A stretch of 64,000 nt of DNA, taken from sequence record SRR31156797_1198; one strand, 5' to 3'. Position numbers and translations under genes: made by a program. The notes below the pieces were generated by a model. The model saw only the letters and a program-made list of their open reading frames with translations, did no database searches and was not told the DNA's origin. This document shows positions 15,384 through 55,172 of the stretch, in pieces; position 1 is the stretch's first letter; each line of letters opens with the position of its first letter.

Positions 15384-16100
15384 CTATTTAATTGGTTGTT
15401 TCGCTGGCATTCCCGGTTTGCGGGGGTATTTCTTTGGCGTTTCTTTTTTCTTTTGAATGATCAAAAGATGGCGTTCATCGCCGCTGACCGGTAAGGTAAA
15501 GCTTTTTTCTTCAATAAATTTGCCGCCTAAGAGTGAGATCGCTGGTTTGGCTTCAACCAGTTCTTCCTCGCTTTTGGCAGCTTTGAGCGCATAAAAATAG
15601 CCTGCTTTTTTCACCAATGGCACACAGAGTTCCGTTAACACATTCAAACGGGCAACCGCTCGAGCGGTCACATAATCGAATTGCCCACGAAATTGCGGGT
15701 TTTGACCAAATGTTTCTGCACGGTCATGGTACAAGTGGACATTTTCCAATTGTAGATCCGTCACAAGAGTTTGTAAAAAGGTGATGCGCTTATTTAAAGA
15801 GTCGACGATCGTCACTTCTAGTTCAGGAAACACGATTTTTAGTGGAATACTTGGAAAGCCAGCACCTGAACCGACATCGCACAAATGACTTTGCGGGTCA
15901 AAGGCGGTTTCAAAAGCTAAGGAAACAGAATCGTAGAAATGCTTTAAATACACTTCTGATTTTTCCGTGATTGCGGTTAGATTCATCTTCTGATTCCATT
16001 CGACTAAACGCTCGAAATAGACAGCGAATTTTTCCATTTGTTCTTCAGTTAAAACGATCCCGTTTTTGCGTAATTCTTCATGAAATTCTTCAGGTAGCAT
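15384..16100 (-). CDS. rsmG: 16S rRNA m7G527 methyltransferase
   Basis: [30 protein letters not shown]. Confidence 0.96.
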
Positions 16101-16153
16101 AACGAATCCTTTCTATTTTGTGAAACAGAAAAATGTTTCACAGACTAGTTCCT

Positions 16154-16182
16154 ACTTTAACGCAAAAAGCAGTGTGATGCAA
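16154..16182 (-). promoter_or_regulatory. Sigma-A promoter of rsmG-parA-parB
   Basis: TTGCAT-17 nt-TAAAGT on minus strand. Confidence 0.55.
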
Positions 16183-16230
16183 TAGCCAGAGATTGCTTTC
16201 TAGGAGAATTTACCATTTTTTAACTGGGGC

Positions 16231-16263
16231 TTTAAGGTTGGTTTAAGGCATAGAAATTATACT
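16231..16263 (+). promoter_or_regulatory. OmpR-family direct-repeat (CiaR-box-like) activated promoter
   Basis: TTTAAG-GTTGG-TTTAAG (16231-16247), 10 nt, then TATACT (16258-16263). Confidence 0.65.
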
Positions 16264-16269
16264 CATTTC

Positions 16270-16336
16270 AATCCAAAAAACTTTTTTCATTTTTCCTTGA
16301 CCAGCAAGGCTGCCAACCCTGCTGGTCAGCTTTTTT
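16270..16336 (+). ncRNA. Candidate csRNA-like small RNA (~67 nt)
   Basis: Follows that promoter; AATCCAAAAAACTTTTTTCATTTTTCCTT then terminator TGACCAGCA/TGCTGGTCA plus T6; no ORF on this strand. Confidence 0.6.
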
Positions 16337-16343
16337 CTCAAAG

Positions 16344-16378
16344 AAACAAGCATTGATCTCAGGATCAATGCTTGTTTT
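16344..16378 (-). terminator. Terminator of Asp23/Gls24 operon
   Basis: AAACAAGCATTGATC/GATCAATGCTTGTTT. Confidence 0.75.
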
Positions 16379-16394
16379 TGTTTCATATGAAACT
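16379..16394. promoter_or_regulatory. parS-like site
   Basis: TGTTTCATATGAAACT, 13/16, palindromic core. Confidence 0.55.
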
Positions 16395-16397
16395 TTT

Positions 16398-17168
16398 TTA
16401 TTTCACGCGAGGTTCGTTGTATTCTTCGATACGATCAGACGCGCGGGAAGCCGCATGTTTGGCTTTGTTGGTTTGACGTGAAGCAAAGTTGCCGGTTTTA
16501 GATGCAGCTGACGATACTTTGTCTTGAACCGTTTCTTGTTCCTCTTCGTATTCAGCGATTGTTTTCACATCCACAACGTTGATGTTGACTTCGATCACTT
16601 CTAATTGGGTCATTGTCGTTACTTCTTTTTGAATGACTTCTTTGACTTGTTCAGCGATTTCTGGGATGTTGCGGTCGTATTCAACCACGATATCTAAATC
16701 AACGGCTACTTGTTTTTTCCCAACTTCAGTATTGATACCGGCAGTCACATTATCTGTATTAACTAATTTTTCAGCAATATTAGAGAAGAAACCACCATCG
16801 ACCGTCAACAAGCCATCTACATTTTCTAATGCAATTCCGATAATTTTTTGGATCACTTTGTCATCATAGGTCAATGAACCATGAACGGGTGCTTCCCCGG
16901 TTGGTCCTTCAAAATCGTTGTGGCCAGGTTTTGGCGGTGCTGGATGATGTCCGGCTGGATCTGGATTTCCTGGTGCTGGATGATCCCCTGGTTTTGGTCC
17001 ATTTTGTTGTCCTGCTACTGCTTTTTCAGCATTTGGTACCACTGGATCAGGTGATTCAGTCATTGGAATCGCATTTTCATTGGCTTGATGATTGGTGTTG
17101 GGAACCACTGGATCTGGATGTGCACTGACATTTTTTTCATTGTTTAATTCGTTTTTATCGTTATTCAT
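16398..17168 (-). CDS. Asp23/Gls24 family stress protein with Pro-rich N-terminal extension (Gls33-like)
   Basis: LTYDDKVIQKIIG, EVGKKQVAVDLDIVVEY, EVNINVVDV. Confidence 0.9.
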   Translation of the reverse strand: MNNDKNELNNEKNVSAHPDPVVPNTNHQANENAIPMTESPDPVVPNAEKAVAGQQNGPKPGDHPAPGNPDPAGHHPAPPKPGHNDFEGPTGEAPVHGSLTYDDKVIQKIIGIALENVDGLLTVDGGFFSNIAEKLVNTDNVTAGINTEVGKKQVAVDLDIVVEYDRNIPEIAEQVKEVIQKEVTTMTQLEVIEVNINVVDVKTIAEYEEEQETVQDKVSSAASKTGNFASRQTNKAKHAASRASDRIEEYNEPRVK

Positions 17169-17192
17169 TAAAAATTCCTCCTATAAAATACG

Positions 17193-17384
17193 TTATTGTT
17201 GGTTAAAAAATTCGTCGATGATACCAGTACGTTGGAGATACAATCCTAGCGCAAAACCCAAACCTGTTAGGAGTAGAATCAGCAATGTTTTGAAAAAACC
17301 GATCGTTACAAACAACACAGCCAGAACAAGGCCGATTGCTCCAAAAATCAATGGGATTTTGTATTGTTGTAGTTCGTTCATCAT
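17193..17384 (-). CDS. Small membrane protein, DUF2273-like
   Basis: 63 aa, two TM, TIGFFKT motif; between amaP-like and asp23-like genes. Confidence 0.8.
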   Translation of the reverse strand: MMNELQQYKIPLIFGAIGLVLAVLFVTIGFFKTLLILLLTGLGFALGLYLQRTGIIDEFFNQQ

Positions 17385-17391
17385 AGCCCTC

Positions 17392-17961
17392 CTATTCTAC
17401 TCGCGGGTTTTCCGGAGTCTCATTTTGTTCAAAATTCGCGTAAGTGACTTCAACTTTGACTTTTTCACTTGAGCCAAGCACTCGTTGGACATCTTGTTGG
17501 ATTTCCGCCATTAAGTTTTCGGTTTTGCCAACTAAGGCAGACGTCCGTTTCAAGCGGCCTTTGATTTTGATTAAAATTCGATTTTTGGTCGCCTTGACAT
17601 GAACTTTTGGTCCTTCAACAAATTCTTTTTCATTTACTTTCGTACGTACAAGTCCTTCGATCGCTTTCTTATCGATCGTCAATGCGCCCTTATCCTCTTT
17701 CAAAACAAAGGTTGTTTTAGTTTTTGGATAAAACAGCACGACTAAGATCACGATCAAGAATACGGCGATCAAAACAACGGCTACCCAAAACATATATTGA
17801 CGCATAAACAAGTTGTCAAAGAAATACGTGACGACATTGCCTCTGCTGTCCAAACCAAATGGCAGCTGCATGTAAGGATTACTCATTAAAACGATTGGTA
17901 ATAAGACAGTGATAAAGATCAACGAAACGATGATTGATACGATTTTCCACCCTTTACTCAT
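17392..17961 (-). CDS. amaP: Alkaline shock response membrane anchor AmaP-like
   Basis: Two N-terminal TM, GALTIDKKAIEG, C-terminal PRVE; operon context. Confidence 0.75.
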   Translation of the reverse strand: MSKGWKIVSIIVSLIFITVLLPIVLMSNPYMQLPFGLDSRGNVVTYFFDNLFMRQYMFWVAVVLIAVFLIVILVVLFYPKTKTTFVLKEDKGALTIDKKAIEGLVRTKVNEKEFVEGPKVHVKATKNRILIKIKGRLKRTSALVGKTENLMAEIQQDVQRVLGSSEKVKVEVTYANFEQNETPENPRVE

Positions 17962-19960: not shown

Positions 19961-20419
19961 GTGAAAAAATTATTTTTTGTGCCGTTTATTTTTCTTTGTT
20001 TCTTCTTTGCTCTCCCAGCTGCCGCCCAAACAGTGGAAGAACCTGAACTCGTTTACGACTTAGCATCAGATAGTCCCTATGAGCAGCTGATCACCGTAGA
20101 TGAAGAAGGCAACGAGTTGATTTTGACCATTGAAAAATTGCCGTCATTCCGGGCAAATCTGGCAGCAGGAACGTATCGCGTGTCAAAAACATCCACCGGT
20201 AATTGGACCGCTAGTTACAATGTCACGGTCAATAGCCGCAATCAATTTACAGGCACTTCGAATTTAAGTTTAGTTGCTCACAGAGGAAGTATCACTTCTA
20301 GTTCATTAACTCACACGTCCACTAAAGCCACCTGTACGTTTAAGCAAAAAGCAGGTATAATCACTACCAATGGGAGTGTCGTAACCACGATCTCAAATGG
20401 GAAGCTAGTTGTTAAATAG
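19961..20419 (+). CDS. Secreted Ser/Thr-rich hypothetical protein (possibly DUF5626-like)
   Basis: AAGGAG plus GTG start; signal peptide MKKLFF..PAAA-Q; beta-rich-looking C-terminal half. Confidence 0.7.
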   Translation: MKKLFFVPFIFLCFFFALPAAAQTVEEPELVYDLASDSPYEQLITVDEEGNELILTIEKLPSFRANLAAGTYRVSKTSTGNWTASYNVTVNSRNQFTGTSNLSLVAHRGSITSSSLTHTSTKATCTFKQKAGIITTNGSVVTTISNGKLVVK

Positions 20420-25929: not shown

Positions 25930-26754
25930 TTATTTTTTCCGTTTCTTTTTAGGACTCATTGCTTTTTTCAGGGCTCGTTCACGCTCGCGTTCTTTGCGGG
26001 CGGCTTCTTCTCTTTCTTGGCGAATCTTGAATGGGTTATTTAAGATCATTGTTTGCAAGACTTGGAATGCATTAGAAACAACCCAGTACAAGGAAAGACC
26101 GCTGGCAATGTTGATCCCCATCAGTAAGATCATCATCGGCATAGCGAAATTCATGATTTTCAAACTCGCATTTGATTCCACTTGGCTCATACTTGATAAG
26201 TAGGTACTTGCAAAAGTAAAGAGCGCCGCTAAAATCGGCAAGATGAAGTATGGGTCACGATCACCCAGCTGCAGCCATAAGAATTTTCCTTCTTGCAGAG
26301 CAGGAACCCGTGAGATCGATTGCCACAAGGCCATCAAAATCGGCATTTGTACCAATAATGGTAGACAGCCGGCATAGGGATTGACATTGTTTTCCGCATA
26401 CAAACGTTGTGTTTCTTCTTTTAACTTGCTTTGTGTTTCTGTATCTTTTGACGCATATTGCTGCTGCAGCGCTTTTAGCTTCGGTTGTAATTCTTGCGTT
26501 TTGCGCATGCTTTTGGTTTGAAAGTGCATCAACGGCATCAAAATGACCCGGATGATCAATGTAAAGAGGATGATCCCGATCCCGGCATTGCCGAAGGAGA
26601 GGGCTTTGATCGCCTCTGCAAAATAATAAACGATGTAACGATCCCATAGACCGGTACTTTGTGCATTTACTTCACCTGTTGCACCGCAGGCAGATAAGAC
26701 AACTACTAATGAGAGAACTCCCAAAAATAGTAAGACGCGTTTCCCTTTTTTCAC
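25930..26754 (-). CDS. yidC: Membrane protein insertase YidC/SpoIIIJ
   Basis: Lipobox LSAC, GCLPLLVQMP, LSLYWVVSN. Confidence 0.95.
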   Translation of the reverse strand: MKKGKRVLLFLGVLSLVVVLSACGATGEVNAQSTGLWDRYIVYYFAEAIKALSFGNAGIGIILFTLIIRVILMPLMHFQTKSMRKTQELQPKLKALQQQYASKDTETQSKLKEETQRLYAENNVNPYAGCLPLLVQMPILMALWQSISRVPALQEGKFLWLQLGDRDPYFILPILAALFTFASTYLSSMSQVESNASLKIMNFAMPMMILLMGINIASGLSLYWVVSNAFQVLQTMILNNPFKIRQEREEAARKERERERALKKAMSPKKKRKK

Positions 26755-53488: not shown

Positions 53489-54946
53489 ATGACAAAAGTA
53501 CGTGTACGTTACGCGCCAAGTCCAACAGGACATTTACACATCGGGAATGCTCGGACGGCTTTATTCAATTATTTGTTTGCTCGTCACAATGACGGTGAAT
53601 TTATTATCCGAATCGAAGACACCGATCAAAAAAGAAACATTGAAGATGGTGAAAAAAGCCAGCTTGAAAACTTGCAATGGTTAGGGATGGATTGGGACGA
53701 ATCACCTGAAAATCCAGGGGAATATGGGCCGTATCGTCAATCAGAACGCGGCGATATCTACCAACCACTGATCGATCAATTGCTCGCAAGCAATCGTGCG
53801 TATAAGTGTTATTGTACGGAAGAAGAGTTGGAAGCCGAACGCGAAGGCCAAAGAACGCGTGGCGAAATGCCTCATTATGCAGGGAAATGTGCCAACTTAA
53901 CACCGGAAGAGCAAGCCGAAAAAGAAGCACAAGGCTTGAAACCAGTGATTCGTTTCCGTGTCTCTCGCAATACTGAATACAAATTCCATGACATGGTCAA
54001 AGGCGAGATCGTTTTTGAATCAGATAATGTCGGTGGCGATTTTGTCATCCAAAAACGTGATGGCATGCCGACCTACAACTTTGCAGTAGCAGTGGATGAC
54101 CATCATATGAAAATCACCCATGTGTTGCGTGGAGATGACCACATCGCCAACACACCAAAACAGTTGATGATCTATGAAGCATTTGGCTGGCAAGCACCGG
54201 AATTCGGTCACATGACATTGATCATCAATAGCGAAACTGGGAAAAAATTAAGCAAACGGGACGAATCGATTCTGCAATTCATCGAGCAATACCGTGAATT
54301 GGGCTATTTGCCAGATGCTATGTTCAATTTTATTGCACTTTTAGGCTGGTCACCAGTTGGGGAGGAAGAAATTTTCTCTCAAGAAGAATTGATCAAAATC
54401 TTTGATCCTGAACGGTTGAGCAAATCACCAGCTGCCTTCGATGCCAAGAAATTGGAATGGGTCAATAACCAGTACATGAAACAAATGGATTTGGATGAAT
54501 TGACGGCAATGTGCGTTCCTTACTTGGTAAAAGCTGGCCGCATCGAAGAAACATTGACCGAAGAAAAAGCTGCTTGGTTGAAAAAAATCGTTTCCTTGTA
54601 TCAACCACAAATGAGTTTTGCGGCTCAAATCGTCGATCTTTCGGAATTGTTCTTCGAAGAACATCCTGAATTAGATGATGCAGCCAAAGAAGTCTTGGCA
54701 GGGGAAACCGTACCGACGGTTTTAACAGCCTTTAAAGAAAAATTGCTGGCGATGCCAGTTGTTGAAGCTGCAGCAGTCAAAGCAGCTATCAAGGAGATCC
54801 AAAAAGAAACAGGCATCAAAGGCAAGAATTTATTCATGCCGATCCGCGTGGCGGTCTCAGGCCAAACCCATGGACCAGAACTACCGGATACCGTTGAATT
54901 ATTAGGGAAAGAAAAAGCCCTTGATCATTTGAATAACGTGTTATAA
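53489..54946 (+). CDS. gltX: Glutamate--tRNA ligase
   Basis: [17 protein letters not shown]. Confidence 0.98.
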
Positions 54947-54949
54947 ACA

Positions 54950-55172
54950 CAGCGAATAGACGAAGTACTAGCCGATTTTTTTCAGAGAGGCCACGGAAGG
55001 TGAGAGTGGTCAAAAAAGGCTAGGAAATGCACCTAGGAGTGGCTTTGGCGCAAGTCAAAGACGAAGCAGCGGACGTTACCCGCTTGAAGGCAGTGCCGAA
55101 CTGCGAACAAAAGTGGGACCACGCAAAAAAGCGTCTTTTGAATAAGGAAACTTATTTGAAAGACGCTTTTTT
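54950..55172 (+). promoter_or_regulatory. T-box riboswitch (Cys) leader of cysE-cysS
   Basis: AGAGAGGCCACGGAAGGTGAGAGTGG; specifier TGC 55028-55030; AAAAGTGGGACCACG; terminator AAAAAAGCGTCTTT/AAAGACGCTTTTTT. Confidence 0.9.

Follow-up and report, generated by a model that had tools for sequence, protein, structure and literature searches.

A Probable csRNA-Type Small RNA Gene with a CiaR-Type Promoter Box in an Enterococcal DNA Stretch

An intergenic unit at positions 16231–16336 of a 64,000-nucleotide stretch of Enterococcus DNA from sequence record SRR31156797_1198, hereafter referred to as the window, was analysed. The unit is probably a gene for a small regulatory RNA (sRNA) of about 67 nucleotides (nt), which is of the type of the streptococcal cia-dependent small RNAs (csRNAs), is activated through a CiaR-type box and blocks translation by pairing with ribosome-binding sites and start codons. 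A first-pass annotation, made from the sequence without database searches, had described the unit as csRNA-like; the CiaR-type box, the OmpR-family regulator and the tract directed against start codons and Shine–Dalgarno (SD) sequences were backed by conservation, synteny, related genomes and comparison with csRNAs, whereas CroR as the regulator and the targets proposed within the window were not.

Promoter, Predicted Transcript and Fold

The elements of the unit, all on the plus strand, are as follows:

16231–16236, plus strand: first TTTAAG repeat of the CiaR-type box, invariant in 7/7 same-genus copies and conserved in a 31-row family alignment
16242–16247, plus strand: second TTTAAG repeat, 5 nt past the first (GTTGG between them), in the −35 position, as seen in the genus and family alignments
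16248–16257, plus strand: 10-nt spacer GCATAGAAAT between the second repeat and the −10 hexamer
16258–16263, plus strand: −10 hexamer TATACT, exactly 10 nt beyond the second repeat, with 5/6 positions invariant
16270–16336, plus strand: small RNA with a predicted length of ~67 nt, its start placed 7 nt after the −10 hexamer and its end at the last U of the terminator
16271–16279, plus strand: AUCCAAAAA at the 5′ end, agreeing with the nonamer of streptococcal csRNAs at 8/9 positions (in streptococci, AUCCUAAAC and AUCCUAAC; family consensus CCAAnAA, carried by other enterococcal genera)
16282–16298, plus strand: U6-CAU-U4-CCUU tract, unpaired in the predicted fold and invariant in the genus, with CUUUUUUCAUUU conserved across genera
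16288–16290, plus strand: anti-start-codon CAU in the unpaired 5′ part
16293–16298, plus strand: anti-SD sequence UUCCUU, inside or bordering the unpaired 5′ part
16297–16336, plus strand: intrinsic terminator, with a hairpin at 16297–16329 and a U-run at 16331–16336 (six T)

The two TTTAAG repeats 5 nt apart, the 10-nt distance, the TATACT hexamer and the ~67-nt unit without an open reading frame (ORF), as initially described, were thus all present. CATTTC stands directly 3′ of TATACT and is followed by the tract AATCCAAAAAACTTTTTTCATTTTTCCTT; a transcript beginning at the predicted start (~16270) would read AAUCCAAAAAACUUUUUUCAUUUUUCCUU. Folding of 16270–16336 left the first 27 nt unpaired and gave a single hairpin (−17.7 kcal/mol, z −3.33; 1/200 shuffles as stable), which together with the U-run ends 73 nt after the −10 hexamer. 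This unpaired stretch mirrors AAGGA-AAAA-AUG-AAA-AAA-G. According to the ORF list of the window, no plus-strand ORF of at least 30 amino acids (aa) overlaps the unit, which is flanked by two minus-strand genes, namely, rsmG (15384–16100, Pfam GidB) and an Asp23-family gene (16398–17168). The promoter scan of the window does not list the sRNA promoter, as it has no −35 element, and a simple terminator scan lists only the adjoining hairpin at 16342–16379 and not the hairpin of the sRNA itself; since the stem of the latter is interrupted, its assignment as a terminator rests on the RNA fold and on family covariation.

The box alone was unremarkable: the window contains one match with at most one mismatch (0.52 expected), and at least one match was found in 42/100 shuffles. 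TAnnnT was found exactly 10 nt downstream at 12 of the 15 box sites of three related genomes, and the sites sort into orthologous groups. What exceeds chance is the composite unit and its conservation, not the repeat by itself.

Conservation within the Genus

The unit was detected by BLAST in 6/8 same-genus genomes and in 0/33 others, and by a covariance model spanning the box to the U-run and built from the seven genus copies (model R1; E-value up to 0.01) in 7/8 same-genus genomes. All seven copies lie between rsmG and the Asp23-family gene. In the alignment of these seven sequences, the repeats (12/12 positions) and the tract TCAATCC..CCT (30/30) were invariant, whereas the spacer between the box and the −10 hexamer (0/10) and that between the repeats (2/5) varied, although the 10-nt distance to the −10 hexamer was kept in every copy. 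The identity of the RsmG proteins of the same genomes falls to 78–84%. The only change in the tract was one extra A, and the exchanges in the stem were U-A to C-G and C-G to U-A. As the change in the length of the A-run breaks the minus-strand frame, selection acts on the nucleotides and on the geometry of the plus-strand promoter. On the evidence of this alignment, the composite unit is under selection. It should be noted that a lack of conservation of the box spacing or of the UUUUCAU core had been named beforehand as an argument against an sRNA gene, and both proved to be conserved (7/7 copies and 30/30 positions of the tract, respectively).

Distribution in the Family Enterococcaceae

Model R1 matched 35/134 Enterococcaceae genomes belonging to 6/17 genera, and a second model, R2, built from 31 aligned matches and used with strict filters (E-value up to 0.001), matched 58/134 genomes of 9/17 genera, with up to five copies per genome, some of them in tandem; the genera without matches may merely carry more divergent copies. 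One R1 match without a box (L125), apparently false, was excluded from the 30 source loci. The layout common to the family was TTTAAG-N5-(T/A)TTAAG, 10 nt, TATnnT, about 6 nt, CA..CCAA(A/U)AA, CUUUUU(U)CAUUU, usually an anti-SD sequence, a hairpin and a U-run; the R1 matches from other genera share the box, the N10 distance, the −10 hexamer, CA..CCAAnAA..CUUUUUUCAUUU and the hairpin. In the 31-row alignment, 11/12 pairs of the hairpin change on both sides, and 94% of the cells are paired versus at most 47.5% with slid partners, the alignment being fitted to the model.

The units of other genera occupy other loci, with 0/23 flanked by rsmG or an Asp23-family gene. Among 36 named Enterococcaceae rsmG loci, the unit stands beside rsmG at three (Enterococcus innesii, Enterococcus sp. 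DIV0876 and Enterococcus sp. RIT-PI-f), and the RsmG protein of Enterococcus innesii is 100% identical to that of the window. A pattern search with the seed only (19-mer, at most two mismatches, 134 family genomes) barely exceeded the reversed control, because the seed mirrors a common gene start, and was discounted as evidence.

Several units in related genomes are recorded here in their own right. In genus g6, three to four model matches lie within a few kb of each other at G178:C1:3004-4733 and G050:C3:173006-195544, and we take these clusters to resemble the tandem csRNA genes of pneumococci. In genus g14 (L106 and L107), a csRNA-like unit is situated ~640 nt upstream of the small SRP RNA gene. 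A third csRNA-like unit of G002 (L147, G002:C1:614206-614299, minus strand) has a degenerate second repeat (TTTAGC), CAUACCAAAAAU, the anti-SD sequence CUUCCUC and a terminator. A box-driven mini-unit in three genomes (L016 in G001:C99, L011 in G002 and L015 in G005) consists, ~22–75 nt past the box, of 5′-GACAUAAUAAUU and an immediate terminator hairpin, and no conserved ORF was found downstream of it in these genomes; the streptococcal csRNAs examined likewise carry its CAUAAUAAU, as their anti-start tract.

Comparison with Streptococcal csRNAs

In the text of Marx et al. 2010 (PMC3091779), csRNA genes were searched for as intergenic sites with two TTTAAG repeats separated by 5 nt (each with no more than one mismatch, Gs kept), a −10 hexamer (TATAAT, at most two mismatches) at 10 nt and a terminator within 250 nt. 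The window unit has all of these features, TATACT differing from TATAAT at one position. According to the same text (PMC3091779), csRNAs measure 51–202 nt, a terminator hairpin alone is present in 16 of the 61 predicted RNAs, CAU occurs in 53/61, anti-SD stretches are found, and the nonamer [A/C]UCCUAAA[A/C] lies at the 5′ end or past the first stem-loop. The core of the window unit, AUCCAAAAAAC-UUUUUUCAU-UUUUCCUU, runs parallel to the cores of two box-driven streptococcal csRNA loci, which scored 94.5 and 93.2 bits on the Rfam csRNA model RF02379, namely, AUCCUAAAC-UUUUCUUUUUCAU-AAUAAUCUCC and AUCCUAAC-UUUUUCAU-AAUAAUCUCCU.

The features shared with streptococcal csRNAs are the box 10 nt before the −10 hexamer, the intergenic position, the intrinsic terminator, a size within 51–202 nt, the unpaired CAU and anti-SD sequences, the 5′ UCC-A-rich motif, the presence of several genes per genome in some relatives, and the single-hairpin form, which exists in streptococci too. 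The differences are that the host of the window belongs to the Enterococcaceae, that the unit lacks a 5′ stem-loop of the csRNA1 type, and that its anti-SD sequence UUCCUU is near the CAU, whereas the CUCC of csRNAs is six nt away. The unit is placed with the operational csRNA kind of Marx et al. 2010 and not with the Rfam family RF02379, whose model does not match it, and common descent of the enterococcal unit and the streptococcal csRNA itself is likely.

Putative Regulator

The regulator was examined in G001, the genome nearest to the window. Two of the six boxes of G001 lie 3.4 kb apart on one contig (C131): the first drives a VTC-DUF4956-Cthe_2159 operon, divergent from the genes of an OmpR-type regulator (224 aa) and a histidine kinase (438 aa), and the second drives an FtsX permease/ABC ATPase pair. 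The VTC-DUF4956-Cthe_2159 operon itself is located at L022 8591-11915 (G001:C131). A divergent box beside the orthologous regulator was found at 8/30 loci inspected, including 7 of the 29 other loci (L045, L046 and L049–L053), which belong to other genera of the family and to one other family.

A search with the G001 regulator in 101 genomes of the order gave a bimodal distribution, with orthologue-grade identities of 49–78% and paralogues at ~35–43%. In genus g19, the best match was 59–60% identical in 12/12 genomes, and all nine g19 loci among the 30 inspected carry the published CiaR recognition helix VVEVYVSK[VI]RKKL. Since g19 combines the exact CiaR helix with the two box-driven loci, both from one of its genomes, for which the Rfam csRNA model gave 94.5 and 93.2 bits, it was taken to be Streptococcus and its regulators to be CiaR. 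The reverse search with one g19 regulator returned the same enterococcal regulator in 3/3 genomes (G001, G002 and G005; 60% identity, E-value 5e-85), the next hit being at 41% (E-value 2e-47). The kinase aligned over 433 residues with the kinase that occupies the CiaH position in streptococci (36% identity, E-value 6e-80), the N-terminal sensor half being poorly conserved.

The system thus resembles CiaRH of Streptococcus pneumoniae in the reciprocal best hit of the regulator (60%, 224 aa), the gene order, the adjoining box promoters and the length of the kinase (438 vs 444 aa, aligned end to end at 36%); it differs in the recognition helix VVEVYMSNLRKHL, which departs at 4/13 positions, and in the weakly conserved sensor part of the kinase. 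The first-pass annotation had left the regulator unnamed, with CroR as one candidate; a CiaR orthologue with a CiaH-like kinase is the likely regulator on this comparison and a far better candidate. To our knowledge, the VTC operon, the FtsX/ABC pair and Amidase_3 are not recognised as members of the pneumococcal CiaR regulon, and no htrA site was found among the exact boxes of the three related genomes.

The literature gave no usable match of the CiaR orthologue to the named enterococcal systems (ChtRS, CroRS), and an E. faecium transcriptome paper lists a gene annotated ciaR. In Marx et al. 2010 (PMC3091779), CiaRH is described as apparently absent beyond streptococci, with no CiaH homologues found there. 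BAS0540-BAS0541 of Bacillus anthracis is presented as the closest CiaRH homologue outside streptococci, and its regulator binds promoter regions with NTTAAG-N5-TTTAAG in gel shifts (PMC4938410), so box specificity can persist outside Streptococcus. This system differs in belonging to a different bacterial order and in that the available portion of the article reports no small RNA genes in its predicted regulon.

Putative Targets and Proposed Mechanism

The sequence GAAAAATGAARAAAG has just two sites per genome in G002 and G005, one on the strand opposite the sRNA and the other at the beginning of an Amidase_3 gene that is driven by a box and encodes a membrane-anchored protein. The predicted duplex of the sRNA with this start comprises 15 contiguous pairs and five more on the SD sequence (−18.1 kcal/mol). 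A box-driven N-acetylmuramoyl-L-alanine amidase is accordingly put forward as a hypothetical target in these two sister species, and as a weaker candidate for the clade of the window. A second exact 15-mer site in G001 was rejected, as it lies inside a small helix-turn-helix-like ORF and not at a gene start; the start regions of the VTC and ABC-permease genes also failed as targets, with pairing energies of only −9.2 to −14.0 kcal/mol. A recurrent match to the complement of the 22-mer was discarded because it lies inside a conserved coding region, presumably, from its translation, a glycogen-branching-enzyme gene.

The two targets originally proposed within the window, the secreted protein gene at 19961 and the yidC-like gene at 26754, reached only −13.6 and −13.3 kcal/mol, respectively, in a scan in which 611 of 25,582 windows attained −12 kcal/mol or better, and were not upheld. 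The broader rule that the sRNA represses exported proteins starting with MKK likewise found no support.

We infer the transcript itself, its dependence on the CiaR orthologue, its targets and the way in which it pairs with them. Once phosphorylated, the response regulator of the enterococcal CiaRH-like system would probably activate transcription by binding the direct repeat TTTAAG-N5-TTTAAG, which would substitute for a −35 element 10 nt before the −10 hexamer, and the hairpin with the U-run would end transcription. The single-stranded 5′ part would offer three elements, i.e., the UCC-A-rich motif, the U-run with CAU, and UUCCUU. By analogy with streptococcal csRNAs, this part would most likely pair with the ribosome-binding sites and start codons of mRNAs of the AAGGA...AUG-AAA-AAA type and block initiation. 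With the amidase as a target, an incoherent feed-forward loop would arise. OmrA and OmrB of Escherichia coli are small RNAs that are activated by an envelope-sensing OmpR-family regulator and repress the translation of envelope proteins; they differ from the enterococcal unit in their unrelated sequences, their dependence on Hfq and their Gram-negative hosts, and the resemblance is an analogy only.

Evaluation of the Interpretation and Its Alternatives

A number of results weigh against a csRNA-type gene regulated by CiaR. The Rfam csRNA model RF02379 (gathering score 57 bits) gave no match in the window, nor any at E-value ≤10 in 16100–16420 (321 nt), and matched 0/17 enterococcal loci, with 94.5 and 93.2 bits for the two streptococcal controls; of the two database checks initially suggested, the BLAST comparison was thus positive (6/8 same-genus genomes) and the covariance comparison with the csRNA model negative. 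The enterococcal model R2 in turn matched just one of five Streptococcus genomes. It follows from both results that short motifs and a common layout, which might arise from shared function as well, are the basis of the likeness to streptococcal csRNAs. One same-genus genome (G004) had no copy by BLAST or by the covariance models, and because models R1 and R2 include the promoter box, the features shared by their matches are partly so by construction. TTAAG-N5-TTTAAG occurred 6, 4 and 5 times in the three related genomes versus 8, 2 and 3 times for the reversed control; the genome scan proposed in the first-pass annotation thus confirmed the 10-nt spacing (12/15 sites), whereas the boxes were no more numerous than expected from the control.

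Further points of this kind concern targets, regulator and transcript. In the in-window RNAduplex scan, the best non-self energy was −19.0 kcal/mol versus −15.7 to −20.6 kcal/mol for ten shuffled seeds, and the complement of the 22-mer (at most three mismatches, three genomes) gave counts like those of the control, with no long complement in trans. The Amidase_3 pairing was found post hoc, and it was weak (−13.8 kcal/mol) at the orthologous start in G001, to which the window is closest. G001 itself is a proxy that shares 83% of the sampled words with the window, and the recognition helix of its CiaR orthologue, VVEVYMSNLRKHL, agrees with that of CiaR at 9/13 positions, as does the helix of another G001 regulator. 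Finally, four of the 22 public runs listed (those with at least half of the sampled words of 15900–16700) were examined, as assembled contigs, which carry no transcript start, strand or level; two contigs span the whole 801 nt, and in one run a contig stops at 16346 and the next begins at 16355.

An RNA driven by another OmpR-family regulator, such as CroR or the CiaR-like regulator on contig C18 of G001, would be compatible with the 16 OmpR-type regulators of that genome and with the C18 helix RVEIYVSLLRKKL, which also matches the CiaR helix at 9/13 positions. However, a reciprocal best-hit relation with streptococcal CiaR holds for the C131 regulator alone (60% vs 41%); two box promoters lie within 4 kb of it, while 0/6 G001 boxes are on C18, and seven of the eight loci with a divergent box beside the orthologous regulator are outside the genus. 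As for CroR, neither a binding motif nor anything else pointing to this regulator was found in the literature searched. A different regulator is therefore regarded as unlikely. It also seems improbable that a CiaR-dependent RNA acts mainly through its 5′ UCC-A-rich motif, as a binding partner or sink for a protein, rather than by blocking ribosome-binding sites. A protein-binding role was raised for the streptococcal nonamer in the text of Marx et al. 2010 (PMC3091779), few parts of the unit are as well conserved across genera as CCAAnAA, and the in-window target scan gave no convincing mRNA; yet the U-run with CAU and, in most genera, the following anti-SD sequence are equally conserved and unpaired, and the 15 + 5-pair match to the amidase start is present in two species.

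The constant adjacency to rsmG (7/7 genus genomes), whose start is 170 nt away on the opposite strand, would also suit a cis-acting antisense or interference element for this gene, and a weak minus-strand promoter-like site at 16316–16289 would produce a transcript crossing part of the sRNA. This site, however, is a 9/12 consensus match inside the hairpin, matches of this kind are as common in shuffles (2 found, 1.4 expected), and adjacency to rsmG is limited to 3/36 Enterococcaceae loci, with neither rsmG nor an Asp23-family neighbour at the 23 loci of other genera, so such a role is very unlikely. Scarcely any probability is assigned to a minus-strand small peptide (MKKVFWIEMSIISMP) as the encoded product, with the plus-strand RNA gene incidental: its 15-codon frame does begin with an ATG preceded by AAGGA four nt upstream, but this SD-to-ATG spacing is short, the one-base change in the A-run shifts the frame so that 3/7 genomes read MKKVFLD while the nucleotides are otherwise invariant, and it is the box, the spacing and the −10 hexamer of the plus strand that are conserved. 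That a box-like repeat, a −10-like hexamer and a hairpin merely stand together by chance and without function, with which the chance frequency of the box would agree, is hardly credible in view of the invariant tract (30/30) beside a wholly variable spacer (0/10) in genomes whose RsmG identity falls to 78–84%, the covarying helix, and like units in 58/134 family genomes. A csRNA-type sRNA gene with CiaR-type activation is thus retained as the probable explanation.

Neighbouring Features of the Window

The hairpin at 16342–16379 (17 pairs) lies directly past the sRNA terminator. With T-runs on either strand and a position just beyond the Asp23-family stop codon, it probably terminates transcription in both directions; it serves the Asp23-family gene and stands outside the sRNA unit. 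The Asp23-family gene belongs to an operon-like row on the minus strand (16398–17961), together with a gene for a small DUF2273 membrane protein and one for a membrane protein of 189 aa without a Pfam match. Two T-box leaders were identified on the plus strand at 2271–2468 and 54943–55141 (96.2 and 105.9 bits, respectively, above the Rfam gathering score). Among the 22 public runs mentioned above, 17 were RNA libraries, most of them labelled as ant metagenome, which hints at an insect-gut habitat for close relatives.

Biological Significance

No csRNAs in enterococci were found in the full-text literature searched (subscription-only papers and supplements were outside its scope), and csRNAs have so far been described in streptococci only; the present unit suggests a csRNA-type sRNA gene outside Streptococcus. 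It further suggests that a wider range of lactic acid bacteria brake protein synthesis with RNAs of this kind. Through the csRNAs, CiaRH acts at the post-transcriptional level; in streptococci, this system influences competence, autolysis and the tolerance of beta-lactams. We tentatively consider it possible, although doubtful, that CiaRH and csRNA-type RNAs form an old module of the Enterococcaceae and Streptococcaceae, which in casseliflavus-type enterococci damps the amidase that the regulator induces, i.e., an incoherent feed-forward loop in the hydrolysis of the cell wall during envelope stress. The unit also allows the csRNA core (the UCC-A-rich motif and the U-run with CAU) to be aligned across families, which could help to settle the role of the 5′ motif. 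If the unit is expressed, enterococci, including relatives of major hospital pathogens with intrinsic tolerance to cell-wall antibiotics, would share the post-transcriptional arm of CiaRH.

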